Below are positions 18,177 through 37,445 of a stretch of 64,000 nt of DNA, in pieces. Made by a program: the position numbers and the translations under genes. How positions within the stretch are numbered: the first letter of the stretch is position 1; each line of letters begins with the position of its first letter. The notes beneath the pieces are model-generated. The model did no database searches, had not been told where the DNA came from, and saw only the letters and a program-made list of their open reading frames with translations. The DNA lies in NCBI GenBank assembly GCA_017559525.1, contig JAFYRI010000009.1:8443-72442 (forward strand), in the 5' to 3' direction. The stretch comes from Alphaproteobacteria bacterium. GTDB lineage: Bacteria; Pseudomonadota; Alphaproteobacteria; CAAHEQ01; UBA3637.

Positions 18177-18195
18177 TGATGCCTGAGATCCTATC

Positions 18196-20712: not shown

Positions 20713-20755
20713 TTTAAGGCTCCTATTTTCTTATTGATTTTATGATAAGTATACT

Positions 20756-20777
20756 CTTTCTTTATACCTAAAGAAAG
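20756..20777 (-). promoter_or_regulatory. Perfect 9-bp inverted repeat (CTTTCTTTA-TACC-TAAAGAAAG) in the 5' leader/promoter region of the giant pilin gene
   Basis: Seen directly. It lies about 45-65 nt upstream of the start codon, which has the SD AGGAGCC. Confidence 0.3.
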
Positions 20778-20828
20778 TTAATATTTTGATAACAAGTAAA
20801 TAGATATTTTTATGTCATTAAAAATATG

Positions 20829-21317: not shown

Positions 21318-22438
21318 TACATTTTCCGATCATGTGCGTATTTTGCCATGAAATCATCATGAAATTGTTGATAACGATTTTCTTCAATGGCTAATCGAAT
21401 TTGTTTCATTAAATTTTGATAGAAATGAATATTATGCTGTGTCAGGAGCATACTGCCCAAAATTTCACCGGCACGAATTAAATGATGAATATAACCACGT
21501 GTATATTGTGTGCAAGCAGGGCAAGTGCACTCTGCATCTAATGGTGAATGGTCATCAATATGACGAGCGTTGCGCATGTTTAAAACGCCATGGCTGGTAA
21601 AGGCTTGGCCCGTGCGACCTGAGCGAGATGGCATCACACAATCAAACATATCGACACCACGTAAAACGGCTCCAACAATATCACTTGGGCGACCAACTCC
21701 CATTAAATAGCGAGGTTTATTATCTGGCAAAGCACATGCTGTATAATCCAATACAGAAAACATCATTTCTTGCCCCTCGCCAACGGCTAATCCGCCGATA
21801 GCATAACCATCGAATCCAATATCTGTCAATGCCTTGATAGATTGCATACGTAAATCTTCATGCATACCACCCTGAACGATACCAAAAATGCCGTATCCAT
21901 TGCGATCTTTAAAAGCATCTTTAGATCGTTTTGCCCATCTCATAGACATTTCCATCGATTTTTTGACAGCAGGTTTTTGTGATGGATATTTAATGCATTC
22001 GTCAAAAGCCATGGTAATATTGGAATCTAATAAATATTGAATTTCCATAGAACGTTCCGGTGATAACATATGACGAGAACCATCAATATGAGATTGGAAT
22101 GCAACGCCTTCCTCTGTTATTTTTCTGAGGCCAGATAAACTCATAACCTGAAAGCCGCCTGAGTCTGTTAAAATTGGTCCATGCCAGTTCATAAATTTGT
22201 GTAAACCACCAAACGAGGCAACGCGTTCTGCAGTTGGGCGTAACATTAAATGGTATGTGTTTCCTAAAATAATTTCGGCACCTGTAGATTTAACCATTTC
22301 TGGGGTCATAGCCTTAACCGTTCCACATGTGCCGACAGGCATAAAAGCGGGTGTTTGCACTGTACCATGAGCTGTTTCAAGTTCACCGCGACGGGCTTTG
22401 TTTTCGGTTGCTTTTAAATTAAATTTTAACATGGACAA
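21317..22438 (-). CDS. tgt: Queuine tRNA-ribosyltransferase
   Basis: 373 aa. [16 protein letters not shown] start. Zn site CxCxxC...H ([16 protein letters not shown]). Confidence 0.9.
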
Positions 22439-22467
22439 ATTTTTCTTTCTGTGTTATAAGTTTTATA

Positions 22468-23232
22468 ATGAAAAAAATGTATCATAAAAAGGAAAAGAAT
22501 TCAATGAAAAATAATAATACTAAGAAAAGTTCAGGTTGGTTTGGTTTGGTATTAGCAGGATTCGCCGCGTTAACTATTCGCTCTTGCGCATTTGAACCAT
22601 ACAATATTCCATCCAGTTCTATGGTGCCAACATTATTAATTGGGGATTATTTATTTATTTCAAAATATCCATATGGATATTCTAAGCATTCTTTCCCATT
22701 TTCTATTCCATTTGTCGGGCAGGGACGTGTTTTTGATAATGAACCAAAGCGTGGTGATGTTGTTATTTTTAAAGAACCCCAAAAAAATCGTGTTGATTAT
22801 ATTAAACGTGTTATTGGATTACCAGGCGAAACAATTGAAATGCGAGAGGGGCGTTTGTATATCAATGGTGAATTAATTGAACGTAAATATATTGGTCAAG
22901 AACGTCAAGAAACAGAACATGGCAATATGCTTTATATGCATTATACTGAGGTTTTACCTGGAGGTTTGGAACATCCAATCTATGAACTTGGTGATTATAT
23001 GCAATATGATTCTTTTGGTCCTTTCACTGTTCCGACAGATCATTATTTTATGATGGGTGATAATCGTGATAATTCCGCAGATAGTCGTTATTTTGGGGCC
23101 GTGCCAGCATTGAATTTGGAAGGACGTGCCGAATTTATTTTCTATTCCAATAATGGTGCTGGCTACTTCTTTGAGTTTTGGAAATGGGGCGACAGTTTAC
23201 GGTTGGATCGTTTCTTTATGGGGATAAAGTAA
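22468..23232 (+). CDS. lepB: Signal peptidase I (true start possibly the ATG at 22504)
   Basis: PSSSMVPTLLIGDYLFISK (Ser box), GDNRDNSADSRYFG. lepB-rnc-era-recO synteny. Confidence 0.85.
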   Translation: MKKMYHKKEKNSMKNNNTKKSSGWFGLVLAGFAALTIRSCAFEPYNIPSSSMVPTLLIGDYLFISKYPYGYSKHSFPFSIPFVGQGRVFDNEPKRGDVVIFKEPQKNRVDYIKRVIGLPGETIEMREGRLYINGELIERKYIGQERQETEHGNMLYMHYTEVLPGGLEHPIYELGDYMQYDSFGPFTVPTDHYFMMGDNRDNSADSRYFGAVPALNLEGRAEFIFYSNNGAGYFFEFWKWGDSLRLDRFFMGIK

Positions 23233-23233
23233 A

Positions 23234-23857
23234 ATGTTAGAAAAATTATTTCGTAATAAAGAATTATTAAAACAAGCCTTGACCTTATCACATCATGGGA
23301 AATCGGCCCCCTATGAACGATTGGAATTTTTAGGCGATCGCGTATTGGGATTAATTATTGCCGATATGCTGTATCATACATTTGATAAGGAAAAAGAAGG
23401 TGAATTGGCACGTCGTTTCACAGGATTAGTGCGAGAAGAAACCTTGGCTCAAATTGCGGTTCAACTCAATTTGGGAGAAATGATGATTACCAAAGAGCAT
23501 GAACTCAGAGCTAATCGTTCTGTTTTATCGGATGTGTGTGAGGCTGTATTAGGGGCTTTGTATTTGGATAGTGGCTTAGAAGCCGTTCGTTCATTTATGG
23601 AACCCATTTGGACGCCATTGTTGCATATGGATAAAAAGGCTCCCAAAGATGCCAAATCTGCTTTACAAGAATGGGCTCAACAACACGGACATAAATTACC
23701 TGTTTATACGTTAATTGATAAGACGGGTGAAGAACATGCACCGAGATTTATTATGCAGGTAGATGTTGATGGATTAGGTCAAGCAATCGGTGAAGGAACA
23801 AACAAAAAAACGGCAGAACAAACAGCTGCCAGCAATTTATTGAAACAGGTGAAATAA
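23234..23857 (+). CDS. rnc: Ribonuclease III
   Basis: ERLEFLGDRVLGL signature. C-terminal dsRBD. Confidence 0.9.
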   Translation: MLEKLFRNKELLKQALTLSHHGKSAPYERLEFLGDRVLGLIIADMLYHTFDKEKEGELARRFTGLVREETLAQIAVQLNLGEMMITKEHELRANRSVLSDVCEAVLGALYLDSGLEAVRSFMEPIWTPLLHMDKKAPKDAKSALQEWAQQHGHKLPVYTLIDKTGEEHAPRFIMQVDVDGLGQAIGEGTNKKTAEQTAASNLLKQVK

Positions 23858-24759
23858 TGACAGATATTAATAATCAACATTTTGCTTTCGTAGCTGTGCT
23901 TGGTGCACCAAATGCCGGTAAATCCACATTAGTTAACCGCTTAATCGGAGCAAAGATTTCTATTGTATCGCCCAAAGTGCAAACAACTCGTTCTCGGATT
24001 CGAGGCATCTTTGTTGAAGGTGATACACAATTGATTTTAGTGGATACACCAGGGATTTTCAAACCAGGCCGTCGTTTAGATAGAGCCATGGTGGCTTCGG
24101 CTTGGACAGAGGCAGAAGATTCCGATTTGCGTTTATTGTTGGTTGATGCTGTTAAAGGTATTGATAAAAATACGCAAAGCATTATTTCCAATTTGCAAAA
24201 TAATAAGCAACGATGCATTTTGGTTATCAACAAAATTGATGCCATTTCCAAAGATAAGTTGTTGCCATTAATCGCCAGTTTAAATAAGGCAAATATCTTT
24301 TCGGATACATTCTTAATTTCTGCCGAAACAGGTGAAAATGTTGATGAGCTCAAAAATTATCTGATTGCTAAGGCACCTAAAGGCATGTGGATGTTTCCGG
24401 ATGATCAATTGACGGATTTACCGAACAGATTATTTGCTGCCGAAATTACACGTGAAAAGTTATTTATGGCTTTGCAACAAGAATTGCCATATTCTGTTGC
24501 GGTTCAAACAACATCATTTAAAGAACAAAAATCAGGCATTCGTATTGAACAAACCATTTATGTGGAACGTGAAGGGCAAAAATCTATCGTTTTGGGTAAA
24601 AATGGCCAAATGATTAAAAAGGTTGGTGAACGCGCCCGTTATGAGTTGTCAAAATTATTTGAAATGCCGGTTCATTTGTTTTTGTTTGTTAAGGTTAAAG
24701 AAAACTGGGTAGATGATCAAAGCCAGTATTCTGATTGGGGATTGGATTTTAATGCCTGA
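23857..24759 (+). CDS. era: GTPase Era
   Basis: FVAVLGAPNAGKSTLVN G1 motif, DTPG, NKID. KH domain. Confidence 0.9.
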   Translation: MTDINNQHFAFVAVLGAPNAGKSTLVNRLIGAKISIVSPKVQTTRSRIRGIFVEGDTQLILVDTPGIFKPGRRLDRAMVASAWTEAEDSDLRLLLVDAVKGIDKNTQSIISNLQNNKQRCILVINKIDAISKDKLLPLIASLNKANIFSDTFLISAETGENVDELKNYLIAKAPKGMWMFPDDQLTDLPNRLFAAEITREKLFMALQQELPYSVAVQTTSFKEQKSGIRIEQTIYVEREGQKSIVLGKNGQMIKKVGERARYELSKLFEMPVHLFLFVKVKENWVDDQSQYSDWGLDFNA

Positions 24760-25429
24760 ATTTAAAACACATAAGTCATTGGTTTTATCCTCCCGTAAAT
24801 TGGGGGAAAATTCTTATGTGGTCAGTCTTTTTACAAAAGAATTTGGCAAACATTTAGGTGTGTGTAAAAGAAAATCTCCACCTGCAACTGGTACTTTTGT
24901 GGAGGGACGGTGGCAAGCCAGACTTCCCGAACAAATGGGAACATACTATTTGGAAAATGCAGAACCACTCAGTGCTCTCTTTTTGGATGATAAAAAACGT
25001 CTTGCTTGTGTGGCTAGTGTTTGTGCATTGCTAGATGGTGTGTTGCCGGAACGTCAAAATGTTGGTATTTTGTTTGATGAAACAATGGATATGTTATCGG
25101 ATTTGGAAAATGATGATTTCTTATCCCGATATGTGAAATGGGAACAAAATTTACTTGGCACAATAGGTTTTGGCCTTGATTGTTCGGGGTGTGCCGGCGG
25201 TGGAGATGATAACGATTTGGCTTATATCTCCCCTAAAACAGGCCGTGCTGTCAGTCGAGAAAAGGGGCATCCATATCATGATAAGTTATTGGAATTACCT
25301 GCTTTTTTGTGGACTGAGCAAGGAGCAACTGCTTCGGATATCCAAGCGGGATTGAAATTAACGGGCTATTTTTTTGAAAACTATTCACCACTTAAATCAT
25401 TGCCTAAGGTACGTGAATTGTTGTATTGA
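24752..25429 (+). CDS. recO: DNA repair protein RecO (ATG start inside the longer TTG-started ORF; overlaps the era stop)
   Basis: MPEFKTHKSLVLSSRKLGENSYVVSLFTKEFGKHLGVCK matches the RecO N-terminal OB fold. A Cys cluster CSGCAGGG is present. Confidence 0.8.
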   Translation: MPEFKTHKSLVLSSRKLGENSYVVSLFTKEFGKHLGVCKRKSPPATGTFVEGRWQARLPEQMGTYYLENAEPLSALFLDDKKRLACVASVCALLDGVLPERQNVGILFDETMDMLSDLENDDFLSRYVKWEQNLLGTIGFGLDCSGCAGGGDDNDLAYISPKTGRAVSREKGHPYHDKLLELPAFLWTEQGATASDIQAGLKLTGYFFENYSPLKSLPKVRELLY

Positions 25430-25851
25430 TTTTGTTCATCTGTTGGTAGATGTATTTTTGATGAATGATTTAACGGTATATTTTGTGGATTGTTATAAAA
25501 TTTATTATACAGATAATGTGAAAATCTGATTGTTAAAATAATGCTCATAATGATGCAGCTTACCAATAAAGTGTGTTCATCTTTAAAATGGCTTAACCAA
25601 GAAAAAGGTTTTTCATTTATTGTAAACCAATAAACTAAGATAATAAAAGCCCCTAAACTTAACGAAATGAACCAATCACTAGCTAATTTAAAACAAATGG
25701 CAGTTAAACTGTTTTCCCATCCCTTTATTTGTCTTCGAAACCATAAAGATAAAAATAAAGCGATAAATACGGTTCCAAGCAAAAGAACATGTCCAAGGTA
25801 TCCTGTAAAAATCAAACTCATAAGTATCAACAAAAATAATGCATGAATCAT
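25381..25851 (-). CDS. Hypothetical integral membrane protein
   Basis: Four predicted TM helices. The start overlaps the stop of the upstream GtrA-like gene (ATGA). Confidence 0.4.
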   Translation of the reverse strand: MIHALFLLILMSLIFTGYLGHVLLLGTVFIALFLSLWFRRQIKGWENSLTAICFKLASDWFISLSLGAFIILVYWFTINEKPFSWLSHFKDEHTLLVSCIIMSIILTIRFSHYLYNKFYNNPQNIPLNHSSKIHLPTDEQNQYNNSRTLGNDLSGE

Positions 25852-26279
25852 AATGTTTTCTCTATTTTATTTCTAAATGCAAAATGTTTTAACATGATCC
25901 AACTGAAAATGGTGAGTATGACCAAAATGATGATTTGTGCGATGTAGGCATCTATACCGATTCCATCTACAAAACCCCATAACAAAGCGGCATTTAATCC
26001 ATAACTGATTCCCCAAGTACCAAGACATTTGACAAATTCCGGCCATGCAGGTGCTTTTGAGCCAAATACATAAATTTTTTGTGTCCAAAAACTGTTGATA
26101 GAACTGATTGCAAAGGATAAAGCTAATACCAATTGTTCATACTGTCCATTAAATAGCCATAACAAACTGGCAAATAAAAGGTACGAAAAAACGGTGTTAT
26201 AACCACCCACCAACAAAAATCTGATTTTTTGAGGCCACCTCATCCACCAACGATATATTTTTAAATATAATCCAATCAT
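25848..26279 (-). CDS. GtrA-family membrane protein (polysaccharide synthesis/translocation accessory)
   Basis: RFLLVGGYNTVFSYLLFASLLWLF start, 4 TM, about 140 aa. Confidence 0.6.
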   Translation of the reverse strand: MIGLYLKIYRWWMRWPQKIRFLLVGGYNTVFSYLLFASLLWLFNGQYEQLVLALSFAISSINSFWTQKIYVFGSKAPAWPEFVKCLGTWGISYGLNAALLWGFVDGIGIDAYIAQIIILVILTIFSWIMLKHFAFRNKIEKTL

Positions 26280-26357
26280 AAGTCACAGCATACGCCGATA
26301 AATAATATCCGTCAAGAATAACTTGAAAAAGAATGGATAATATGATAGGATACATTT

Positions 26358-26891
26358 ATGAAAAATGAAAAAATGTTATTGGTTTCTTGTTGTGCCCCGT
26401 GTAGTGGGGGTGTGATTAAAAGTCTTGCTGAACAAGGCAGAAATTTTGCCGTTTTATTTTATAATCCGAATATTCGTCCGTTGTCTGAATATGAACGCCG
26501 GCGAGATGAAAATAAACGTGTATGTGAAGCATTTAAAGTGCCCTTTATTGAGTTGGAATATAATCCATGTGTGTGGGATGAAGCAACTATAGGGTTATTG
26601 AATGAACCTGAACGTGGTAAACGGTGTGATATTTGTTTTTATTTGCGTTTAAAAAAAGCGGCTGAATATGCTAAAGAAAATGGCTATACATGTTTTGCTT
26701 CCGTTTTAGGAATTTCACGATATAAAGATTTTGATCAAGTGTGTCGTGCGGGACAACGGGCTAGTGATGAAGTCGGTATTCCTTATGATATGACAAATTG
26801 GCGTAAAGACGGTGGTGAAGAATTACGCCGAGCAGTTGAAACAGAATTTAATATGTACCGTCAACGTTATTGTGGATGCAGACCAAGATAA
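26358..26891 (+). CDS. queH: Epoxyqueuosine reductase QueH (DUF208)
   Basis: LLVSCCAPCS...YNPNIRP...RCDICFYLRL...RYCGC Cys pattern. Confidence 0.7.
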   Translation: MKNEKMLLVSCCAPCSGGVIKSLAEQGRNFAVLFYNPNIRPLSEYERRRDENKRVCEAFKVPFIELEYNPCVWDEATIGLLNEPERGKRCDICFYLRLKKAAEYAKENGYTCFASVLGISRYKDFDQVCRAGQRASDEVGIPYDMTNWRKDGGEELRRAVETEFNMYRQRYCGCRPR

Positions 26892-26941
26892 ATTATTTTA
26901 TAGATATAAAATATCCTCTGTTTTGAGAATTTTTTATTTAC

Positions 26942-26973
26942 AAAAATCTCCCGCCAAAAGGTGGGAGATTTTG
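26942..26973. terminator. Bidirectional terminator between convergent queH and PFOR genes
   Basis: AAAA-ATCTCCCGCC-AAAA-GGTGGGAGAT-TTTG. Confidence 0.65.
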
Positions 26974-26988
26974 CAAGATATTTTCTGA

Positions 26989-29900
26989 TTATTCTTCGTT
27001 TTTGGCCATACGCTCATACAATTTGAAACGTTTATCAATTTGTTTTTGAGCTTCATCCACCAAACGAGCATAATGTTCCGGATTTTGTTGCTTAATGACT
27101 TTAAAGCGTGTTTCCGTATCCATAAAATCGGCCACAGGACGAGAAGGGCGAGCATCCAATTGGAATGGATTTTTACCTTCTGCACTACGGCGCGGGTCAA
27201 AACGATACAGTGGCCACAAACCACTTTCAACTGCCATTTTTTGGTGAGCTAATCCAGATGTGCCAATATCATAACCATGAGCAATACAATGGCTGTAAGC
27301 AATAATTAAAGATGGACCATCAAAGGATTCAGCTTCATTCATGGCTTGTAGGACTTGACTGTCTTTAGCGCCAAGTGATACACTGGCTACATATACATTA
27401 CCGGATGATACGGCAATCATGCCCAAATCTTTACGAGGAGCTTCATTACCTGCAATGGCAAATTTAGCACTGGCACCGATTGGTGTGGCTTTGGAACGTT
27501 GACCACCTGTATTGGAATAAACGTTTGTATCCATAACCATAATATTAACATTGCGACCAGAGTACAGAACATGGTCTAAACCACCATATCCAATATCATA
27601 AGCCCAACCATCACCCCCAAAAATCCAAACAGATTTTTTAACGAGGTAATCGGCGGATTCAGACAACAATTTTGCTTTATCACCATTTAAACCAGCCAAT
27701 CTGACCTTTAAATTATCCACATGGCGACGTTGTTCAGCAATGCCGGCTTCGGTTGTTTGATCTGCTGTCATAATAGCTGTCACTAATTCGTCCCCAATGT
27801 CAGCAGATAATTCTTGTAACAATTGAACAGCCAATGCCGTTTTTGTATCAACAGATACGCGCATACCTAAACCAAATTCGGCGTTGTCTTCAAATAATGA
27901 GTTTGCCCAACTTGGACCTCTGCCTTCGGCATTTTTGGCATATGGTGTTGTTGGCAAGTTACCACTGTAAATGGAAGAACATCCCGTTGCATTGGCAACA
28001 ATTAATCTGTCACCAAACAATTGTGTTACCATCTTGACATACGGTGTTTCACCACAACCGGCACAAGCACCAGAGAACTCAAACAACGGTTGCATCAAAC
28101 TGACCGATTTAATCAATTTTGGAGACAATTTTGTCCTGTCAGCTTCTGGTAAGGATTTAAAGAAATCATAGTTTTGAATTTCGGTATCCATTAATTTGTC
28201 GGCCGGTTCCATATTAACGGCAACCAAATCCGGATTTTCTTTGTTTTTAACTGGACATACTTGTGTACACAGTGAACAACCCGTACAATCTTCCGGAGCA
28301 ACTTGAATAGAATAATAATCACCCAAGAATTCTTTACCCTTATATGGTACTGTTTTAAATGTCGCCGGAGCTTTTTCCAAATCGTCTTTGCTGATAACCT
28401 TAGAACGAATAGCGGCATGAGGACAAACGCTGATACATTTACCACATTGGATACATAATTCTGGATCCCAACAAGGTAATTGTGTCGCAATACGACGTTT
28501 TTCATATTTTGCCGTATCTGTTGGCCAAGTGCCATCAGCTGTCCATTCAAACGCGCTAACCGGCAATTCATCACCTTTACCTTCAATGATTTTACCCGTT
28601 ACATTTTTAATGAGTTCAGGAGCATAATCCGGTACGCCGGCTTGTTTATGAATAGTGGATGTTGCGCTACCAACCGTAATTTCATGTAAGTGAGCCAATG
28701 CCGCATCAACAGCCTTAATATTCGCATCAACAATTTCTTGTCCCTTACGCATATATGTTTTTGTGATGGATTTTTTGATTTTTTCAATAGCTTCATCTTT
28801 CGGCAACACACCGGAAATCGCAAAGAAACATGTTTGCATAATGGTATTTGTTCTGCGTCCCATACCATTATTTTGTGCTACTTTTACGGCATCAATAGCA
28901 TATAATTTGATGTTTTTATCAATGATTTCTTGTTGTACTTCAATTGGCAATGAATCCCACACTTTATCCGGTGTTTCGGATGTATTTAATAATAACACCG
29001 CATTTTTGGCCGCATATTTTAAAATATCCAATTTATGCATAAACGGCATATGGTGACATGCTACAAAATTGGCCGAATTAATTAAATAAGGTGCCTTAAT
29101 CGGATTTTTGGAAAAACGTAAATGAGAAGCCGTCATCGCACCTGATTTTTTGGAATCATACACAAAGTATGCTTGACCATAATAACCACCTTCATCGGCA
29201 ATAATTTTAATGGAGTTTTTATTGGCACCAACCGTTCCGTCAGAACCCAAACCAAAGAACAAACAACGACTGACTTCATCGGATTCAATATCAAATGTTT
29301 CATCATATGGCAAAGACAAATGTGTTACATCATCTGCAATACCGATTGTGAAGTGATTTTTGGTTGTATTTTCCAAAACGGCCTTAGCCATCGCCGGAGT
29401 AAATTCTTTTGAAGATAATCCATAACGACCACCTAAAACTTTTGGCATTGTGGTGATTTGACCACTTGTCATACCTTCGGCCAATGTAGATACAACATCT
29501 AAGTATAATGGTTCACCAACGGATCCAGCCTCTTTTGTTCTGTCCAATACCACAACCGTTTGGGCTGTTTTAGGTAAAGCGCTAATAAAGGCCTCTTTTG
29601 GGAATGGACGATACAAATGTATGTTCAACATACCGTATTTTGCACCCTTTGCATTCAATGCCATAATTGTTTCTGATAATGTTTCGGCACCAGACCCCAT
29701 AACAACAACAATTTGTTCGGCATCTTCGGCTCCAGTATAATCAACCAAGTGATAACGACGACCGGAAACCTTGGCAAATTTTTGCATAGCTGATTCAACA
29801 TGAGCCGGCACAGCGTTATAGTACTTATTAGATGCTTCACGAATTTGGAAGAATACATCTGGATTTTGTGCTGTCCCACGTACCTTTGGATTATCTGGAG

Positions 29901-30528
29901 TTAAAGCATTTTTACCAATAAAGTCCGTTGGAATATCGGCCATTAAAGCTTTTAAATCTTCATCAGACAAAGGTGTCATTTTGTTGATTTCATGAGATGT
30001 TCTGAAACCGTCAAAGAAATGAATAAACGGCACACGGGATTTAAATGTTGCCATTTGCGCAATAGCTGCAAAGTCTTGAGCCTCTTGCACTGAAGAAGAC
30101 GCAAGCATCGCAAACCCTGTTTGACGACAAGCCATTACATCAGAATGGTCGCCGAAAATGGATAACGCGTGAGCTGCCACCGTACGAGCTGCCACATGCA
30201 TTACAAAAGGTGTCAATTCACCGGCGATTTTATACATATTGGGAATCATCAACAACAAACCTTGTGAGGCTGTATATGTTGTTGTAATAGAACCAGCTTG
30301 TAAAGAACCGTGAACAGCACCGATAGCACCAGCTTCGGATTGCATTTCTAAAACTTCAGGCACCTTACCCCAAATATTTTTTTGACCAGCAGCTGACCAA
30401 GCATCAGCCCATTCTCCCATCGGAGAAGACGGCGTAATCGGATAAATAATGGATACTTCGTTAAGTTTATGAGCCACTCTGGCGGCGGCTTCGTTCCCGT
30501 CCATCATTTTCATTTTGTTATCTGACAT
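26989..30528 (-). CDS. nifJ: Pyruvate:ferredoxin (flavodoxin) oxidoreductase, single-polypeptide NifJ/PFOR type
   Basis: About 1180 aa. MSDNKMKMMDGNEAAARVAHKLNEVSIIYPITPSS N-terminus. Two 4Fe-4S CxxCxxCxxxCP motifs. TPP-binding GDGW region. The start was moved to the ATG with AAGGAA SD; the ORF track extends 90 nt further upstream. Confidence 0.9.
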   Translation of the reverse strand: MSDNKMKMMDGNEAAARVAHKLNEVSIIYPITPSSPMGEWADAWSAAGQKNIWGKVPEVLEMQSEAGAIGAVHGSLQAGSITTTYTASQGLLLMIPNMYKIAGELTPFVMHVAARTVAAHALSIFGDHSDVMACRQTGFAMLASSSVQEAQDFAAIAQMATFKSRVPFIHFFDGFRTSHEINKMTPLSDEDLKALMADIPTDFIGKNALTPDNPKVRGTAQNPDVFFQIREASNKYYNAVPAHVESAMQKFAKVSGRRYHLVDYTGAEDAEQIVVVMGSGAETLSETIMALNAKGAKYGMLNIHLYRPFPKEAFISALPKTAQTVVVLDRTKEAGSVGEPLYLDVVSTLAEGMTSGQITTMPKVLGGRYGLSSKEFTPAMAKAVLENTTKNHFTIGIADDVTHLSLPYDETFDIESDEVSRCLFFGLGSDGTVGANKNSIKIIADEGGYYGQAYFVYDSKKSGAMTASHLRFSKNPIKAPYLINSANFVACHHMPFMHKLDILKYAAKNAVLLLNTSETPDKVWDSLPIEVQQEIIDKNIKLYAIDAVKVAQNNGMGRRTNTIMQTCFFAISGVLPKDEAIEKIKKSITKTYMRKGQEIVDANIKAVDAALAHLHEITVGSATSTIHKQAGVPDYAPELIKNVTGKIIEGKGDELPVSAFEWTADGTWPTDTAKYEKRRIATQLPCWDPELCIQCGKCISVCPHAAIRSKVISKDDLEKAPATFKTVPYKGKEFLGDYYSIQVAPEDCTGCSLCTQVCPVKNKENPDLVAVNMEPADKLMDTEIQNYDFFKSLPEADRTKLSPKLIKSVSLMQPLFEFSGACAGCGETPYVKMVTQLFGDRLIVANATGCSSIYSGNLPTTPYAKNAEGRGPSWANSLFEDNAEFGLGMRVSVDTKTALAVQLLQELSADIGDELVTAIMTADQTTEAGIAEQRRHVDNLKVRLAGLNGDKAKLLSESADYLVKKSVWIFGGDGWAYDIGYGGLDHVLYSGRNVNIMVMDTNVYSNTGGQRSKATPIGASAKFAIAGNEAPRKDLGMIAVSSGNVYVASVSLGAKDSQVLQAMNEAESFDGPSLIIAYSHCIAHGYDIGTSGLAHQKMAVESGLWPLYRFDPRRSAEGKNPFQLDARPSRPVADFMDTETRFKVIKQQNPEHYARLVDEAQKQIDKRFKLYERMAKNEE

Positions 30529-30649
30529 ATTCATTCCTTTCGTGATATCAAAAATCATATAAAAATATGATATTCTTTTACACTTTTTTCGCCAAAATGT
30601 CCAGTAATTTTTTGACAATCTAAACGGGGAATAAATGCCTTAATTTATA

Positions 30650-30679
30650 TTGACAAAGAACAAAAGTAACGCATATACT
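30650..30679 (+). promoter_or_regulatory. Candidate sigma70 promoter (TTGACA-18-TATACT), only 6 nt upstream of the lipoprotein ATG (possible leaderless transcript)
   Basis: TTGACA at 30650-30655 and TATACT at 30674-30679. The ATG is at 30686 and has no SD. Confidence 0.35.
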
Positions 30680-30685
30680 ATCCAT

Positions 30686-31117
30686 ATGAAAAAAATTATT
30701 TTATTGATACTTATTGGTGTGCTGAGTGGATGTCAAAGTATATCCGCAAAAGAAGAAAAGTTTAAAAATCCGTTATTTTATAAAAAGATGGAAAATTTAT
30801 CCTCTAACTATTTTTGGGATATGAAACTGACACCCACCACAATGACGTCATATTTACGGCATACAGATACGGTTTGGGTTCAAAAATGCGACCTTATCAA
30901 AAATGAAGAAACATATGTTATTATGTCTTGTGAAGATGTACTGGATTCCACATATCGACACCGTACAAAATGTATTATAGATAATGATCCGTTTGAAGGA
31001 CACGTTAAATGTTATGGTTCCGAAGACAAATATGACGATCCCGAAAAACATTGGAATTCTATAGACAATTATACTACCAACGATCCCAATTACACTATCA
31101 ATAATCCCAATCGATGA
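30686..31117 (+). CDS. Hypothetical lipoprotein
   Basis: MKKIILLILIGVLSGCQS lipobox. The ORF-track start at 30650 is a TTG inside the promoter. Confidence 0.5.
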   Translation: MKKIILLILIGVLSGCQSISAKEEKFKNPLFYKKMENLSSNYFWDMKLTPTTMTSYLRHTDTVWVQKCDLIKNEETYVIMSCEDVLDSTYRHRTKCIIDNDPFEGHVKCYGSEDKYDDPEKHWNSIDNYTTNDPNYTINNPNR

Positions 31118-31853
31118 TTTGTAATATTTTTTGAATCATATCTTGATTGCGATCTTGTGACACATCTTTTCTATGACTTTCTTCCGCCACAGACCGGATA
31201 TTTTTATCTTGAATAGCTTGTATCATTTTGGGAAATTTTTCAATGTGACCAGTATTGTATTGAATATCTATAACGGCATCTTGCACACCGGTCGGTAACT
31301 TATCAAAGTTTGGAACAGCTCGGCGAATTTGCGCTAAATCACTTTTTAAATGGTCCACCATTTGTTTATTAATTTGTGCATCAGACAAACGCGAAACGGT
31401 ATATTTTTCATAGAAATTCGCTTGATAATTTCTTGAAGGTGTATTTTTGATAGAGGTATAATCCGCCTTAATTTCGTCAGGTGTCGCCTTTTGACCGGTA
31501 TTTTTATTCACCCAATCTAACGAGGCATATTTATCAAAATTATCCACATTTAATCCTCCACCGACGGTGATAATACCCTTTGTGTCTTTATAGGGAAAAT
31601 CTTTAACCCCTTCGTGTTTTTTAATTTCGGGTATATTGCGTTTGATTAATTCATCGTCCAAAACAAGAGGATCGGACACAGATGATTTTGATACGACAGA
31701 TTCTTTAAAATTATTGTTTTCATCTAATTTATCGGCATTATTTTGAAACCACACATCAATAAAGTCATTGGCTTGTTTATGGGCAGGATGTTTTTTATCT
31801 TGATACATTTTAGAATTCATAAAATTTGTTATTTGGTGATATGGAATGGGCAT
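31098..31853 (-). CDS. T4-lysozyme-like (GH24 family) muramidase-domain protein with an ~85-aa N-terminal extension; no signal peptide
   Basis: KHEGVKDFPYKDTKGIITVGGG aligns with T4L [23 protein letters not shown], with identical Glu/Asp/Thr catalytic spacing (E, +9 D, +6 T). The downstream helical lobe is conserved. The start was set at the ATG with AAGGAGA SD (MPIPYHQ...). Confidence 0.6.
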   Translation of the reverse strand: MPIPYHQITNFMNSKMYQDKKHPAHKQANDFIDVWFQNNADKLDENNNFKESVVSKSSVSDPLVLDDELIKRNIPEIKKHEGVKDFPYKDTKGIITVGGGLNVDNFDKYASLDWVNKNTGQKATPDEIKADYTSIKNTPSRNYQANFYEKYTVSRLSDAQINKQMVDHLKSDLAQIRRAVPNFDKLPTGVQDAVIDIQYNTGHIEKFPKMIQAIQDKNIRSVAEESHRKDVSQDRNQDMIQKILQIIDWDY

Positions 31854-31865
31854 ATTGTTCTCCTT

Positions 31866-31933
31866 AAAAATAAAAAATACCGTTTGAGTTTTCCCCAAAC
31901 GGTCATAAAAAATCGGGATATATTTCACCCGAT
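31866..31933 (-). terminator. Two consecutive intrinsic terminators on the minus strand between the DUF3126 operon and the lysozyme-like gene
   Basis: Minus strand reads ATCGGGTGAAATATATCCCGAT-TTTTTT, then CCGTTTGGGGAAAACTCAAACGG-TATTTTTTATTTTT. The second hairpin ends 11 nt before the SD of the lysozyme-like gene. Confidence 0.55.
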
Positions 31934-31992
31934 TAACTAAAAAAATATAGCATAATTTTTGTAAAAAGTCAAGGAATATTTTCCTAAATCAT

Positions 31993-32247
31993 TTAATCTC
32001 CACCACGACCGTATTTGCGCATTAACCATAACTGATTTAAATCAATGTTTTGAGTGCTTTCACCTTTTTCAGCTAGCTCAGTTGCGATTTGTTTTTCTTC
32101 TTGAGAACGCCATTGATTGTTTTGCAAATTGGGAGTCCCATCATAATTTTCATGATAACCGCCACCACCTTCACCTTGTGCATAGCGCCATTCCCATTCA
32201 GCGACCTGTGGATCAACAGTTTTTTTTTGATTTTCTGTATCGGTCAT
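31993..32247 (-). CDS. Hypothetical small Gly/Trp/acidic-rich protein
   Basis: 84 aa (MTDTENQKK...GEGGGGYHENYDGTPNLQNNQW...). It is tightly linked downstream of DUF3126. Confidence 0.3.
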   Translation of the reverse strand: MTDTENQKKTVDPQVAEWEWRYAQGEGGGGYHENYDGTPNLQNNQWRSQEEKQIATELAEKGESTQNIDLNQLWLMRKYGRGGD

Positions 32248-32250
32248 AAA

Positions 32251-32469
32251 TTAGAACCGTTCAATATCTTCGGACAAGATGGACATATTCCAATCGTAAG
32301 AAATTTCACCATCATCATTATTTTTGTAAATAACACCGATAAATTCTTTTCCGACAAATACCTCTGCAGGAGCCTGAACACCTTCCCCTTTTTGCACACG
32401 AATTTCCGGATTCCAAAATAATTGTTGCAAATAAGTTTGAACTTTATCCATTTCGGCAGGTGTTAACAT
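32251..32469 (-). CDS. DUF3126-like small protein
   Basis: MLTPAEMDKVQTYLQQLFWNPEIRVQKGEGVQAPAEVFVGKEFIGVIYKNNDDGEISYDW. An AAGGA SD precedes this ATG. Confidence 0.45.
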   Translation of the reverse strand: MLTPAEMDKVQTYLQQLFWNPEIRVQKGEGVQAPAEVFVGKEFIGVIYKNNDDGEISYDWNMSILSEDIERF

Positions 32470-32498
32470 ATTTTTTCCTTTCTTTTTGATGAATTTTA

Positions 32499-33512
32499 GT
32501 GTATTATACACTTATTATGATAAAAGTTCAAGCAAAAAAAATGACAAAATCCTCTTCGTGCTCTGCTGATGTGTCAGCAGATTTAATTTCCATTGCCCCA
32601 ATGTTGGATTGGACAGATCGACATTTTCGGTATTTTTTACGCCATATTTGCAAAAATGCAATGTTTTATTCGGAAATGATAGCCGCACCAGCTTTGATTT
32701 TGGGGGATCGTGCTAAATTATTAGAATATGATGCTGCAGAACATCCTTTGGTATTACAAGTAGGGGGGAGCGAACCCAATTTAATGGCACGATGTGCGGA
32801 ATATGGTGAACAATGGGGATATAAAGCGGTTAATATTAATGCCGGTTGCCCATCATCTCGTGTACAATGTGGTAAATTTGGTGCTATCTTAATGCAAACT
32901 CCAATGTTGGTTGCAGACTGTGTTGCAGAAATGAAAGCAAAGGTTAAAATACCTATTACAGTAAAAACACGTATTTCCCTTAATACAGTTGCTGGAGATG
33001 GATTTGAAAGTTTGTTTAAATTTTCTGATTTAATACATCAGGCTGGATGTAGACATTTAATTGTTCATGCAAGACAGGCAAAGCTTAATTGGTCACCTAA
33101 AGATAATCGTGATAGATTACCACTTAATTATGAATTAGTGTACAAGCTTAAAAAAAGTTTTCCAGATATGTTTGTTTCCATTAATGGGAATGTAAAATCT
33201 CTAGCTGAAACTGCAGAACATTTAAAACATGTTGATGGTGTTATGATAGGACGATATGCCTATGGTAATCCATATGCTTTGAGAGAGATGGATGGTAGAT
33301 TTTGGAATGATACGCGACCTGTTTTATCTCGTACAGAAATTTTAGAACAAATGTTGCCATATATTGAAAAATTTCCGGGGCCAAAACATTATATTACACA
33401 CCATATGTTGGGATTGTATCATGGCGAACCAAATGCAAAGGCCTATAAACAAATTATGGCAACAGGTGATATTGAGGCGTTAAAGGACTTTATAAAAAAA
33501 GAAGTTTTTTAA
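32499..33512 (+). CDS. dusA: tRNA-dihydrouridine synthase A
   Basis: ISIAPMLDWTDRHFRYFLRHI...INAGCPS...HARQA motifs. Confidence 0.85.
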   Translation: MYYTLIMIKVQAKKMTKSSSCSADVSADLISIAPMLDWTDRHFRYFLRHICKNAMFYSEMIAAPALILGDRAKLLEYDAAEHPLVLQVGGSEPNLMARCAEYGEQWGYKAVNINAGCPSSRVQCGKFGAILMQTPMLVADCVAEMKAKVKIPITVKTRISLNTVAGDGFESLFKFSDLIHQAGCRHLIVHARQAKLNWSPKDNRDRLPLNYELVYKLKKSFPDMFVSINGNVKSLAETAEHLKHVDGVMIGRYAYGNPYALREMDGRFWNDTRPVLSRTEILEQMLPYIEKFPGPKHYITHHMLGLYHGEPNAKAYKQIMATGDIEALKDFIKKEVF

Positions 33513-33575
33513 TCTGTTTGCTAAAATTTAAAGTCAAACAATATATTATAAAGTACACTAAGTTTAGTTTAATTG

Positions 33576-33611
33576 TAAAAATACCCCCACTTTCTGTGGG
33601 GGTATTTTTTT
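33576..33611. terminator. Bidirectional terminator between convergent dusA and pckG
   Basis: A6-TACCCCCAC-TTTCT-GTGGGGGTA-T8. Confidence 0.7.
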
Positions 33612-33625
33612 TGAGGATCACCGCA

Positions 33626-35443
33626 TTATTTTACGCGTTTTAATCTATTTTCTAACAAATCAAGTTCGGCATCGAAATCGGTGGGATGACGATCAAAACT
33701 ATTGATATATTCGCGTTGAGCACTAACGTCTTGTAAAGCTAATTTTGAATCTATGGCCATTAAGGCATCAAATTCTTTTTCATTCATTCTCAATCCGCGC
33801 CAATCCATTTGTTCGTATGTTGGCATCCAACCTAAAGCCGTTTCTGTTGCCGTTTTTGTGCCATTACAACGACCGACGACAAAGTCTAATACGCGCATAT
33901 TGTCGCCAAAACCTGGCCACATAAAGTTACCTTTTTTATCTTTGCGGAACCAGTTGACACGGAAGATAAGAGGCTTGTGTTTTAATTTACCTCCCATATC
34001 AAGCCAATGTGCCCAATAATCGCCCATGTTGTATCCGCAGAATGGCAACATAGCAAATGGATCACGGCGAATTTCACCCATTGTACCTTCTGCGGCAGCT
34101 GTTTTTTCGGATCCCATTGTGCTGGCTAAAAAGACACCGTGTTGCCAATTAAAGCTTTGGTAAACAAGAGGTGTATTTGTTGCTAAACGACCACCAAATA
34201 AGAAAGCAGAAATCGGAACACCAGCAGGGTTTTCCCATTCTTTATCAATAATAGGGCATTGGCTGGCTGGTGCTGTAAAACGTGAGTTTGGATGAGCCGC
34301 TGGTGTTTTGGATTTTGGTGTCCAATCGTTACCTTGCCAGTCGATAAGGTGTTTTGGAGCTTTGTCGGTCATGCCCTCCCACCATACATCGCCATCATCG
34401 GTTAAGGCAACGTTTGTGAAGATAGTGTTGGCACGGCAAGACAGCATCGCATTTTTGTTTGTTTTCATGGAAGTCCCTGGTGCAACACCAAAGAATCCAG
34501 CTTCGGGATTGATAGCATATAAACGGCCATCTTTACCAGGTTTTAACCAAGCAATATCATCGCCAATTGTGGAAACTTTCCATCCCAACATTTCACGAGG
34601 CGGAATTAACATGGCCAAATTGGTTTTACCACAAGCGGATGGGAATGCTCCGCATACGTATGTTTTTTCACGTCCCTTTTGTAACCCAACAATTAACATA
34701 TGTTCTGCCAGCCATCCTTCTTCACGGGCCATTGTTGAGGCGACACGAAGTGCCAAGCATTTTTTACCAAGTAAAGCATTGCCGCCATATCCAGAACCAT
34801 AGGAAATGATTTCTCGTGTTTCAGGGAAGTGAGTGATATATGTGTTTTCCGGATTGCATGGCCATGCAACATCTTGCTCATCTTTTTTAAGGGGAGCGCC
34901 GACTGAGTGGAAACATTTTACGAAACTTTTATTGCCTAAATATTTCCATACTTCTTTACCCATACGCGTCATAATGCGCATGTTAGCAACAACATAGGGC
35001 GAGTCGGTAATTTCAACACCAATTTGAGCAATTTTAGATCCCAAAGGTCCCATTGAAAAAGGAATAACGTACATGGTACGACCTTTCATGCATCCTTTCA
35101 TCAAACCATTTAAGGTTTTCTTCATTTTTTTTGGATCAGCCCAGTTATTTGTTGGACCGGCATCAGCCTCTTTTTTACAACAAATAAATGTTCTGGATTC
35201 AACACGGGCAACATCTTTTGGATTAGATCTGGCCAAATAACTATTAGGTCTTTTTTGTGGGTTTAATTTAATAAATGTACCTTTGTCAACTAACTCTTGG
35301 CAAATTTGTTTACACTCTTCCGTTGTTCCGTCACACCAATAAATGCTATCGGGTTTTGTCAATTCTGCTGTTTCTAAAACCCATTTGATAACTTCTTTGT
35401 TTTTGGTGGGACTGTACTGTTTTGATGTTGTTTTTATTGCCAT
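33626..35443 (-). CDS. pckG: Phosphoenolpyruvate carboxykinase (GTP)
   Basis: 605 aa. Kinase-1a P-loop [19 protein letters not shown] specific regions ([18 protein letters not shown]). Confidence 0.9.
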
Positions 35444-35532
35444 ATTTTCCTCCTAATTTTTTTAACTAACTTAAGTTTAAAGTGTATTTTGATACAAGTC
35501 AATGTGTTTTAAGTGTAAAAAATTAAAAAATG

Positions 35533-35541
35533 TGGTATAAT
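35533..35541 (+). promoter_or_regulatory. Extended -10 promoter element (TGGTATAAT) upstream of the HExxH paralog array
   Basis: TG at -15/-14 plus TATAAT at 35536-35541. GAGGT SD lies 7 nt before the ATG at 35562. Confidence 0.4.
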
Positions 35542-35561
35542 GTTATATGTGAGGTATTAAG

Positions 35562-36485
35562 ATGGGAAAATTTTCAGAACAGTTTTTATATGAAGTTTCT
35601 AAATATGCATTAAGTCATGATAAGTTGGACTGTATGCAAGGTGAATTGTCTTCTCAGCTTTTTCAAAAAAAAATATATCAATTGCAACAAAATGTACATC
35701 TATCGGCAGAGTTGACTTCAATTTTTTTTGAATGTGGATATAGTAGAATGCCTCAAAAAGAGAGTAAGGTTGATTTAGAAAAAGAACGCTTAAAACGGTT
35801 GAAAGAGGGATTAATATTAATGTCCCATGTTCCAGCAGGTAGAGAATTATTGTCTCATATGCCACTAGATATATACATGTATGCAATGATACAAGAGGAT
35901 AGGGGTTTTTTTTCATCTTCGGATAAAATGTTATCGGTTTCATCACGTCATCCAACATTATGGGTTGGGAAAAAATTATATATTAAAACTCTGGCTCATG
36001 AAATGGCACATGCACGACATAATCAAGCATTTTCATGTTGTGAATATGGATTTTCGCCTAAAGCGTTTTTTATTGAGGCGGTTTTTGATGAATTAGGTGC
36101 TAGATTAACCGGTGAAAAGATATATCATGAACTATGCAAAAGTGGAAAAATAAATGGTGAAGAAAATCACAAACCATTGTCAATATCAAGACTGGTAGAT
36201 ATTATGGAAAAAAATGGTTATTTTTCATATTTTGCACAAGAAATTTCGGATAAGATAGGTCGCGATATGAATATGATACTGGATGAGGATGATACTCTGA
36301 ACCAACCATTAGGTGAGATGTTTTCATACTATATGAAATTGTATCCTCAGTTGCGACAAAAAAATGTATTAGATAAAATTGATGCACAATATCGTAAATT
36401 AATTTTGTATCCTGCAGGACGATTGGTTGGATTGAGTCAATCACAAGTTAATCGCCGCTTTAAAGATTTTGGATACGGAAAATAA
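35562..36485 (+). CDS. HExxH-motif paralog 1 (putative gluzincin-like metallopeptidase / effector candidate)
   Basis: HEMAH, then 29 aa on DELGA. Shares the N-terminal SE(Q/K)FL(Y/Q)xVS and C-terminal YYMKLYPQL motifs with the three downstream paralogs. Confidence 0.55.
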   Translation: MGKFSEQFLYEVSKYALSHDKLDCMQGELSSQLFQKKIYQLQQNVHLSAELTSIFFECGYSRMPQKESKVDLEKERLKRLKEGLILMSHVPAGRELLSHMPLDIYMYAMIQEDRGFFSSSDKMLSVSSRHPTLWVGKKLYIKTLAHEMAHARHNQAFSCCEYGFSPKAFFIEAVFDELGARLTGEKIYHELCKSGKINGEENHKPLSISRLVDIMEKNGYFSYFAQEISDKIGRDMNMILDEDDTLNQPLGEMFSYYMKLYPQLRQKNVLDKIDAQYRKLILYPAGRLVGLSQSQVNRRFKDFGYGK

Positions 36486-36569
36486 AACTTGACTTTTTTG
36501 CAACAATATGATAAAATGTTTGACAAAATATTGTTTTGACGAATATACGAAGGGATATATTGTTTTTTT

Positions 36570-37439
36570 ATGTCAAATTGGTCAGAAAAATTTTTACAAA
36601 GTGTTTCGCACCCTGCTATTATTGAAATAGCAGAAACATTGCAACCAACTTGTGAAAATTTTGATGCCAAACTGAATAGATTAAAGGCTAATGTTGTTTT
36701 ATCGACAGTAATTGATCGTGATGATTTTAGAGAAATATCATGGGATTATATGATTGATAAAGCAACAGAGTGTAAGTTTTTAAAAAAAATAAAACAATCT
36801 TTTGATGTAATTGCTTCAACGCAAATGGGGAAGGATATTTTATCAGGGGTGCATAGCTCTACTTATTTTGGTGTTGCTCCTATGGAACAGCAAGGATTGT
36901 TTTTTGATCGTTCTTTTCCAACGATTTTTTTAAATGCTTCGGAGGATATATTTAATAATAATACATTGGTTTTGAAAATATTAATTCATGAATGTACGCA
37001 TGCAAAAAACGTAATAATTGGTCAACGATCTAATGCGTGTATTTTGCCTCCTAAATTAATGTTTATGCAATATATGTTAAATGAATTATCTGCTTATTTA
37101 AGCGAATATATTATGATTGCCCAACGCAAAGATAAAACATTTATGGCCTCTTCTCAAACACAGTCACAAGTTTTTGATTGTTTAGATCGTTTGTGTGATG
37201 GTGATTATATAAAAGATTTTTCTGGACGTGTTATTCGTTGGAGTCGAGGAGAAATTTTGAAAACGGACCGTAAAAAAATTGCGGCAAAGGATTTACCAAT
37301 TTTTGCATACTATTTTAAAAAATATCCAGCGTTGTGTGATTTGGCTGTTATTAGTAAACTAAATCAACTGTATCATCATCATGTTGTTAGAAAAGTGCAT
37401 GGACAAAAAATGATGCTAACAAATCAAAAAATAAGGTAG
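36570..37439 (+). CDS. HExxH-motif paralog 2
   Basis: HECTH...NELSAY. C-terminal AYYFKKYPAL. Confidence 0.55.
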   Translation: MSNWSEKFLQSVSHPAIIEIAETLQPTCENFDAKLNRLKANVVLSTVIDRDDFREISWDYMIDKATECKFLKKIKQSFDVIASTQMGKDILSGVHSSTYFGVAPMEQQGLFFDRSFPTIFLNASEDIFNNNTLVLKILIHECTHAKNVIIGQRSNACILPPKLMFMQYMLNELSAYLSEYIMIAQRKDKTFMASSQTQSQVFDCLDRLCDGDYIKDFSGRVIRWSRGEILKTDRKKIAAKDLPIFAYYFKKYPALCDLAVISKLNQLYHHHVVRKVHGQKMMLTNQKIR

Positions 37440-37445
37440 TATTTC

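Follow-up and report, generated by a model that had tools for sequence, protein, structure and literature searches.

Peptidoglycan-degrading toxins with periplasmic immunity proteins are known interbacterial weapons. Here, we analyzed a T4-lysozyme-like gene of family GH24, the short promoter and hairpin unit in front of it, and the convergent lipoprotein gene that overlaps its 3' end, all located on a 64,000-nt stretch of an alphaproteobacterial genome (assembly GCA_017559525.1, contig JAFYRI010000009.1, positions 8,443 to 72,442; this whole stretch is called the window). Several described systems are similar. Pesticin of Yersinia pestis is a toxin with the T4 lysozyme (T4L) fold, a Glu/Asp/Thr center, muramidase activity, and no signal peptide. 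Its partner Pim is small and resides in the periplasm (PMC3390615). The bacteria-killing X-T4SS of Xanthomonas (T4SS, type IV secretion system) is served by X-Tfe(XAC2609), a lysozyme-like effector and cytoplasmic protein that acts in the periplasm, and by the lipoprotein immunity protein X-Tfi(XAC2610) (PMC10933484). In polymorphic toxins, MuF is an established trafficking domain (PMC3482391, PMC5576092); the main text of a survey of MuF toxins makes no mention of lysozyme or peptidoglycan-degrading domains (PMC5576092). The reading that we favor for the locus in the window, with a confidence slightly better than even, is that of a muramidase effector acting in the periplasm together with a lipoprotein immunity protein.

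The locus shares with pesticin and Pim the fold, the catalytic center, and the lack of a signal peptide, and a candidate periplasmic partner is encoded next to the lysozyme. It differs in having neither a TonB box nor a receptor-binding domain (by inspection, residues 1 to 15 contain no motif of the acidic-Thr-x-x-Val type), in an N-terminal part of about 60 aa compared with 167 in pesticin, and in a match to the Pesticin hidden Markov model that stays below threshold. In addition, the partner, a lipoprotein, belongs to an undescribed family, and the locus is chromosomal and syntenic, whereas pesticin is encoded on a plasmid. As for X-Tfe and X-Tfi, the gene of a lipobox (LSGC) protein, here with a putative immunity role, lies next to the lysozyme gene in 10 loci, and a gene for a VirD4/TraG-type coupling protein is present in the same window. 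However, the enzyme belongs to the GH24/T4 lysozyme family and not to that of XAC2609, the two genes are convergent and not bicistronic, and, judged from the extent of the fold, there is no C-terminal domain of the XVIPCD type (~120 aa). MuF polymorphic toxins are approached through relatives of the enzyme (P0019, P0030, and P0095) in which the lysozyme domain is joined to the C-terminal half of MuF, through a common N-terminal motif, and through the adjacent immunity-like gene. The window protein, in contrast, has no detectable MuF, and its gene is surrounded by housekeeping genes and not by a prophage. Lysozyme-type toxins with periplasmic antidotes are a known kind of system. New are the lipoprotein family, the stand-alone architecture with a MuF remnant, and the conserved, reusable cassette of a promoter and a double terminator.

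The lysozyme and its lipoprotein partner

The lysozyme protein is identical to database entry P0001 from a metagenome-assembled "Alphaproteobacteria bacterium." In an earlier note, made from the sequence of the window alone, the gene had been drawn up to 31928/31933. The longest open reading frame (ORF) on the minus strand does open at GTG 31928, within the first of the two hairpins described below. The start is the ATG at 31853, 6 nt 3' of the Shine-Dalgarno (SD) sequence AAGGAG, and what lies beyond it is leader and not coding sequence, which runs from 31853 to 31098 (Table 1). The GC content of the gene is 34%, compared with 36% for the window.

Table 1. Features of the lysozyme locus in window coordinates
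Feature	Position	Strand	Basis or remark
84-aa Gly-rich protein gene (GEGGGGYHENYDG...)	31993-32247	minus	Always 3' of DUF3126 in related loci
Inverted repeat GGAA-N4-TTCC, GGAAAATATTCC	31973..31984	minus	Abuts the -35 element
Sigma-70-type promoter TTGACT-17-TGcTATATT	31944..31972	minus	Consensus scan and conservation; -35 TTGACT, 31972..31967; 17-nt spacer; extended -10 TGcTATATT, 31952..31944
Hairpin 1, AATCGGG/CCCGATT	31907..31934	minus	Stem-loop 31934..31911; U6 ends at 31907
Hairpin 2, then UAUUUUUUAUUUUU	31866..31903	minus	Stem-loop 31903..31879; U-run to 31866; terminator scan match
SD sequence AAGGAG	31860..31865	minus	Read from the sequence; conserved in alignments
Lysozyme-like (GH24) gene	31098..31853	minus	251 aa plus stop; family, fold, conserved catalytic residues, dN/dS
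E81 codon	31613..31611	minus	Catalytic Glu
D90 codon	31586..31584	minus	Catalytic Asp
T96 codon	31568..31566	minus	Catalytic Thr
Convergent lipoprotein gene	30686..31117	plus	143 aa; lipobox LSGC; 3' overlap with the lysozyme gene of 20 nt (31098..31117)
Promoter-like site of the lipoprotein gene, TTGACA-18-TATACT	30650..30679	plus	11 of 12 consensus matches

The identification of the product as T4 lysozyme-like, also put forward in the earlier note, was borne out by its family, fold, and active site. The protein matches Pfam family PF00959 (Phage_lysozyme) over residues 78 to 227 with 26.5 bits (cut-off, 22.3; E value, 8.8e-6) and the endolysin family PHROG 7 with an E value of 2.8e-9. The Pfam family Pesticin (PF16754) was matched by the C-terminal lobe only (residues 158 to 216; E value, 4e-4), and with 20.8 bits, this match is below the cut-off of 25.8. 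NCBIfam and PADLOC gave no match for the lysozyme. A family-profile sequence search of the PDB returned a single match, to an ATP synthase subunit, which was judged spurious. In the AlphaFold2 model, built on 17 homologues and having a mean pLDDT (predicted local distance difference test) of 85, residues 1 to 45 (31853..31719) constitute a helical N-terminal module, which is followed by a linker at about 46 to 62, disordered at 52 to 61, and by a two-lobed T4L-like domain from about 62 to 245 of the 251 residues. T4L and T4L chimeras ranked at the top when the model was compared with the PDB using Foldseek (E values of 5e-4 to 1e-3; template modeling scores of 0.55 to 0.60 on the length of T4L, with 0.57 to 0.60 for the best matches), and a structure search of BFVD retrieved viral and phage lysozymes.

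The spacing of the catalytic residues, E81-x8-D90-x5-T96, is that of E11, D20, and T26 in T4L. The Glu, conservation of which had been named beforehand as a test of the assignment, is invariant in the 17 homologues, as is the Asp, and the Thr is at least 90% conserved. Among 124 more distant relatives, each of the three is at least 90% conserved. The claim that the protein lacks a signal peptide was confirmed as well, and no hydrophobic segment was found anywhere in it, the highest Kyte-Doolittle mean of any 19-residue window being 0.48. The ratio of nonsynonymous to synonymous substitution rates (dN/dS) is 0.11 to 0.32, indicating purifying selection. By these sequence features, the protein appears to be a T4-type enzyme with an intact active site and is predicted to have muramidase activity.

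A profile search of the full database yielded 2776 relatives of the lysozyme domain. When 124 of the best of these were inspected, 11 carried the C-terminal half of MuF, 18 matched Pesticin, and 13 carried PG_binding_1. P0019, P0030, and P0095 combine the lysozyme domain with the C-terminal half of MuF. An N-terminal motif, LMxSxxYQ..xPxH..V...V...F, is common to the window protein, P0095, and P0096; in the latter two, the Zn-knuckle half of MuF and then the lysozyme domain come after it. We read the window lysozyme as a probable derivative of a MuF-lysozyme fusion that lost the MuF core, its Zn-knuckle half.

The lysozyme gene had been called an orphan in the earlier note. This description does not hold, since a conserved convergent lipoprotein gene recurs beside its homologues. 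In 10 loci, lipobox proteins of 130 to 156 aa that are homologous to the lipoprotein of the window are encoded convergently and overlap the 3' end of the lysozyme gene; the pairing is named for L007, L008 (two copies), L014, L015, L016, L017, L018, L019, and L022. The homologues have four conserved Cys residues and an EEKF(V/K)NP motif after the lipid-modified Cys, and the two copies in L008 are tandem paralogues. L007 and L022 represent different genomic contexts, with lysozyme domains that are about 40 to 50% identical to that of the window (41 to 49% for L007), and the L007 lipoprotein is 37% identical to that of the window (E value, 2e-15). A word-based search returned 5 matches in 5.8 billion proteins. 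Pfam, PHROGs, and PADLOC contain no match for the lipoprotein family, and NCBIfam gave only a weak, sub-threshold match to a lipoprotein signal region. Between the end of the -10 element in the promoter-like site of the lipoprotein gene and the ATG lie 6 nt, and no SD sequence is present; a distance of 6 to 7 nt between these elements is also seen for L008a, L008b, L015, L017, and L019, which suggests a leaderless mRNA. The lipoprotein is probably disulfide stabilized and located in the periplasm, and we regard it as a candidate periplasmic immunity protein or inhibitor.

In L003 (5757-7151) and L001 (6055-7122), two loci of a clade in which no lipoprotein gene was seen near that of the lysozyme, the lysozyme gene is followed by one for a Cys-rich protein of 355 to 363 aa with a prepilin-like N-terminus (GRSMTEML...). 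The region upstream of this gene is structured and places a hairpin and a U-run right before the SD sequence.

The lipoprotein, with a dN/dS of 0.40 to 0.52, evolves faster than the lysozyme. Between the window and L008, the lysozyme and lipoprotein genes show synonymous divergences (dS) of 0.22 and 0.15, respectively, compared with 0.85 to 0.95 for the flanking genes of PFOR and DUF3126. The nucleotide identity of the same two loci is mostly 90 to 98% over 31900..30700, with one 100-nt step at 83%, and 74 to 93%, mostly 80 to 89%, in the flanks. The relation is reversed between the window and L005, where dS is 1.57 for the lysozyme and 0.62 for PFOR. The content of the chromosomal slot differs between genomes. 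Lysozyme and lipoprotein genes thus seem to behave as an exchangeable pair in a fixed chromosomal slot and to have been exchanged together.

The promoter-hairpin cassette

The leader of the lysozyme gene is preceded by a near-consensus sigma-70-type promoter that has 10 of 12 consensus matches plus the TG of an extended -10 element. Transcription is predicted to start near 31938/31937, and hairpin 1 begins about 4 nt past this position. Hairpin 1 is a 7-bp stem with three GC pairs; its loop has 10 nt, and U6 comes behind it. It is weaker (-8.0 kcal/mol; ensemble pair probability, ~0.96) than hairpin 2, which has a 10-bp stem with 5 GC pairs and a 5-nt loop directly followed by AUUUUUUAUUUUU (-13.9 kcal/mol; ensemble pair probability, ~0.99). 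The rule of the terminator scanner was satisfied by hairpin 2 only, since the loop of hairpin 1, with 10 nt, is too long for it. What defines an intrinsic terminator, a GC-containing stem-loop with a U-run directly behind it, is predicted from the sequence, and the leader is more structured than its shuffled versions (z = -3.8). Positions 1..60000 were scanned for promoter-like sites with at least 10 of 12 consensus matches, and no other such site is followed by a terminator-like hairpin in the next 100 nt.

These results bear on how the earlier note had pictured expression. Its two terminator hairpins were reproduced by folding, each with a U-run behind it. It had further stated that there is no room for a promoter and that expression would depend on read-through from the DUF3126 operon. 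The first statement is right for the interval between hairpin 2 and the SD sequence, but a conserved promoter is located just 5' of hairpin 1. The second is not supported, given this promoter and the finding that promoter and hairpins move as a unit (see below); with its own promoter before the hairpins, the gene would not require read-through from the DUF3126 operon. Alternative antiterminator structures, which had also been raised, did not appear when the leader was folded: no competitive alternative was found, and the best fold lacking hairpin 2 was about 10 kcal/mol worse. CCCGA of one hairpin region could pair with UUGGG of the other, but this pairing was rejected by inspection, as it comprises only 5 bp and is not conserved in L005. 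Hence, the leader has neither a sensor, for which the ~4 nt that precede hairpin 1 leave no room, nor a mutually exclusive antiterminator, as a riboswitch or a classical attenuator would. Rfam gave no match at E values up to 1 for the 3-kb region. From the conserved elements, it seems that the lysozyme gene has a strong promoter of its own and that two intrinsic terminators have to be passed within the first 70 nt of its transcripts.

All seven orthologous loci (71 to 90% protein identity) keep the -35 element, the TG, the -10 element, both hairpins, both U-runs, and the SD sequence; the three promoter elements are kept in all orthologous and paralogous copies, and the conserved form of the promoter is TTGACT-17-TGnTATAAT. 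In L001, L003, and L009, an inserted block of other genes separates the gene of the 84-aa Gly-rich protein from the lysozyme gene, and the promoter-hairpin unit stays with the latter. The same three loci, and L014, contain a second copy of the cassette directly before a gene for a serum amyloid A (SAA)-like protein, which in L001, L003, and L009 comes after the 84-aa gene. A third version precedes a different gene (MKLNII...) in L012 and L013. In every copy, before three different genes, the SD sequence and the ATG follow at a fixed short distance. L012 and L013 (both 1-160) are contigs from one metagenome that share the same end point, just past the cassette and the first MKLNII... codons, and the cargo gene is probably repeated and broke the assembly.

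Base pairing was counted in 11 close copies of the cassette, with 500 shuffles and slid pairings as controls. Standard pairs made up 98.4% of the pair cells, and four pairs change on both sides, a number reached by 0 of 500 shuffles; the slid controls collapsed. For hairpin 1, 100% of the cells are paired, and one pair, in L005, is changed on both sides. The respective values for hairpin 2 are 97% and three pairs. The turnover of the stems in more distant loci is stronger evidence than this covariation in the close set. L019 has two hairpins with stem sequences that differ from those of the window, and L023 has a promoter and two hairpins of unrelated stem sequences before a homologue that is 31% identical. 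L016 to L018 have a single hairpin, again of a different stem sequence. The counterpart of hairpin 1 in L016 to L018, L019, and L023 is the same hairpin with U7 on other stem sequences.

The inverted repeat GGAA-N4-TTCC, which may be a regulator site or an UP-like element, occurs in most copies of the cassette, including L016 to L018 (GGAAAAAATTCC), and is absent in L005, L012, and L023. At 7940-8000 of L007, the gene of the MuF-lysozyme homologue P0019 lacks the leader hairpins, and a perfect 10-bp palindrome (GTGTATATTA...TAATATACAC) lies over the -10 element, which suggests that this gene is controlled in another way.

The SAA-like protein behind the second copy (225 to 259 aa) contains a Serum-amyloid-A domain (E value, 2.4e-16). 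Its gene is followed by those of small Cys-rich membrane-anchored proteins and by arrays of ~100-aa paralogues with multiple transmembrane segments. A 2025 survey assigned an effector role in polymorphic-toxin-like systems to prok-SAA lipocone domains, listed four-cysteine domain proteins and proteins with four transmembrane segments among their immunity proteins, and predicted all of them to act in the periplasm or at the membrane (PMC12419801). The N-termini of the lysozyme and of the SAA-like toxin show no similarity to each other. In L003 (2149-2165), the SAA-like gene has one extra T compared with L001 and L009, which shifts the frame of its first codons; this can reflect either a pseudogene or a sequencing error.

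In its layout, the cassette is reminiscent of two described leaders. In lambdoid phages, the PR'-tR' leader places a terminator before the lysis genes, and read-through depends on a factor. The E. coli greA leader with its RNA GraL, a precedent for constitutive termination in a leader, has an intrinsic terminator behind a strong promoter, so that mainly short RNAs are produced and expression of the gene relies on read-through; two thirds of the transcripts terminate there (PMC2836576). The cassette differs from both in having two terminators in tandem in the ~70 nt after the predicted start, no room for a sensor or a leader peptide, and an SD sequence directly after the U-run, and in being reused before several toxin genes.

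Proposed role and rival explanations

We propose that the lysozyme, made in the cytoplasm without a signal peptide, would be harmful to cells only if exported or delivered, since the peptidoglycan that it targets lies in the periplasm. The lipoprotein would bind and neutralize the enzyme and thereby protect the producer or its kin. The effector would descend from fusions of a lysozyme with MuF, a phage head protein, of which the 45-aa helical module has been retained. Most transcripts of the cassette would stop at a length of about 30 or 70 nt, as leader RNAs, and the enzyme would be made only by read-through, either leaky or driven by a trans-acting antiterminator. The lipoprotein would be expressed independently from its own promoter, probably as a leaderless mRNA. 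In sister genomes, the same cassette would drive a prok-SAA lipocone toxin and thus serve as a shared control unit for toxin genes. Among the roles offered in the earlier note, a secreted muramidase effector or a tightly controlled bacteriolytic weapon fits best, and a domesticated endolysin is kept as a rival.

If this proposal is right, the locus would add an undescribed family of lipoprotein partners and a stand-alone lineage of GH24 effectors that arose from MuF-lysozyme fusions and carries no recognizable secretion tag. It would also add a compact, reusable control cassette that is common to different toxin genes of uncultured low-GC gut bacteria. The lipoprotein, if confirmed, would be a new natural inhibitor of T4-type lysozymes. 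Being short, the cassette would lend itself as a model for attenuation of lethal genes that is sensor-less or depends on a factor.

Several points weigh against the effector-immunity proposal. Delivery is its weakest point because no secretion tag is recognizable: the lysozyme protein contains no secretion or trafficking domain that we recognized and, by eye, no TonB box, and a C-terminal domain like XVIPCD has no room, since the lysozyme fold extends up to about residue 245 of the 251-aa protein. MuF (PF04233) was not matched by the window lysozyme at E values up to 1. The lipoprotein matches no known family of immunity proteins or lysozyme inhibitors; its model, an 8-stranded beta protein with a pLDDT of 68, gave only generic matches to 8-stranded barrels (E values of at least 0.026; low confidence), from which we draw no conclusion as to its family. 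Nor is the partner obligatory next to the lysozyme. In the clade with 72% identity (L001 to L006, L009, and L010), which keeps the catalytic residues, no homologue of the lipoprotein was found within 5 to 6 kb where the contig allows. The convergent orientation is atypical for effector and immunity pairs of secretion systems. With regard to the cassette, promoter-like consensus matches are abundant in this AT-rich DNA and not enriched relative to shuffles, so that the promoter call rests on conservation, and the covariation is thin, most of the compensatory changes coming from one divergent sequence, L005.

An unlikely alternative, which nevertheless fares best among the rivals, is a domesticated endolysin used for programmed self-lysis or for release of a gene transfer agent (GTA), vesicles, or other toxins, with the lipoprotein as a modulator or a spanin-like helper. 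The enzyme has the fold and family of phage endolysins and, like holin-dependent endolysins, no signal peptide. Tight gating by terminators would suit a lethal lysis gene, and some genomes keep the enzyme without the lipoprotein. However, Pfam annotation of the called genes, which covered nearly the whole window, revealed no holin, spanin, GTA, or phage gene, in agreement with the earlier note, and the sole small gene adjacent to the lysozyme gene is that of the convergent lipoprotein, where a phage lysis cassette would have a holin and a spanin. A spanin reading of the lipoprotein was rejected: it is encoded on the opposite strand and has neither the C-terminal transmembrane segment of a unimolecular spanin nor the short Pro-rich form of an o-spanin. 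Immunity is a better fit to the tandem duplication of the lipoprotein gene and to the exchange of the pair as a unit, and the cassette also drives the SAA-like toxin, which is flanked by genes of immunity type.

A broader reading, which we consider improbable, extends the effector proposal to an undescribed toxin regulon in gut Alphaproteobacteria. The cassette would be its cis element, at which a trans-acting processive antiterminator, perhaps of a phage or GTA, switches several unrelated envelope-targeting toxins on together, and the MuF remnant would load the enzyme into phage-like particles. The GH24 muramidase, the prok-SAA lipocone, and at least one more toxin would be held as short abortive leader RNAs.

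Very unlikely, in our view, is that the enzyme is simply cargo of particles, its MuF-derived N-terminus directing it to capsids of a prophage or GTA encoded elsewhere, with the cassette being a late promoter that requires a Q-like antiterminator, as PR'-tR' of lambda does. The N-terminal module common to MuF-lysozyme fusions and the MuF domains in 11 of the 124 relatives are consistent with this, and the layout, with a lysozyme gene behind a constitutive-looking strong promoter, a short leader, and terminators, mirrors that of a lambdoid late operon. Several toxin genes share the cassette, as members of a regulon would, and the lack of an antiterminator fold in cis makes a trans factor plausible. 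On the other hand, the window protein itself has no MuF match, and there are no phage, GTA, or Q-like genes in the window. IMG/VR contains no close relatives of the lysozyme protein; its relatives on viral contigs are only distant lysozymes, mostly with 19 to 31% identity and with a few short conserved segments of 50 to 67%. The leader motif was not found in viral contigs, and P0019, P0095, and P0025 also occur in non-phage contexts.

We likewise see only a slim chance that the hairpins are the ordinary terminators of the operon of DUF3126 and the 84-aa protein, or that promoter and hairpins constitute a small RNA (sRNA) gene, the lysozyme being essentially silent or expressed accidentally. 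Between the stop of the 84-aa gene (31993) and the cassette promoter, the window has no other terminator, so the hairpins must also stop transcription of the upstream DUF3126 operon, and a promoter with a 5' stem-loop, a U-rich spacer, and a terminator behind it is how sRNA genes are classically laid out. However, in L016 to L018, the upstream gene has its own terminator 5' of the cassette promoter; the hairpin behind the promoter is therefore not there for ending upstream transcription. The fixed position of the SD sequence and the ATG before three different downstream genes, the purifying selection on the lysozyme ORF, and the lack of an Rfam match argue in the same direction.

The view that hairpin 1 is a palindromic DNA operator for a repressor binding just downstream of the start, with repression in place of attenuation, is very doubtful: the near invariance of AATCGGG-N10-CCCGATT among close paralogous copies, the second inverted repeat abutting the -35 element, and the palindrome over the -10 element in L007 that takes the place of the hairpins would agree with it, but distant loci keep the pairing and the U-run and not the sequence, the U-runs conserved after both stems are not needed by a DNA operator, and a centre-to-centre spacing of the half-sites of 17 bp is unusual for dimeric helix-turn-helix repressors.

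Setting and other genes of the window

Across nearly the whole window, the neighbors of the lysozyme gene have housekeeping functions, including Dus, DUF3126, PFOR, PEPCK, RecO, Era, RNase III, SecA, gyrase B, and flagellar genes. For the 84-aa Gly-rich protein, which has a dN/dS of about 0.1, Pfam, PHROGs, NCBIfam, and PADLOC gave no match.

On the plus strand, 30 kb from the lysozyme gene, a 728-aa VirD4/TraG-type T4SS coupling protein (61720..63906; T4SS-DNA_transf, TrwB_AAD_bind, and TraG-D_C) is encoded behind a 374-aa ORF without a family (both within 60577-63906). No VirB genes are visible between the coupling protein gene and the end of the window or elsewhere in the window. As a clue to delivery of the lysozyme, the coupling protein is only a hint.

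An 838-aa ORF on the minus strand (18196-20712) has no family beyond a weak match to Cys-rich TNFR-like repeats. Finally, four tandem paralogous ORFs of 289 to 307 aa with an HEMAHA motif are located on the plus strand at 35562-39241. Their only family match, a weak one, is to DUF6782, a putative metallopeptidase, and they may represent an expanded effector-like family.

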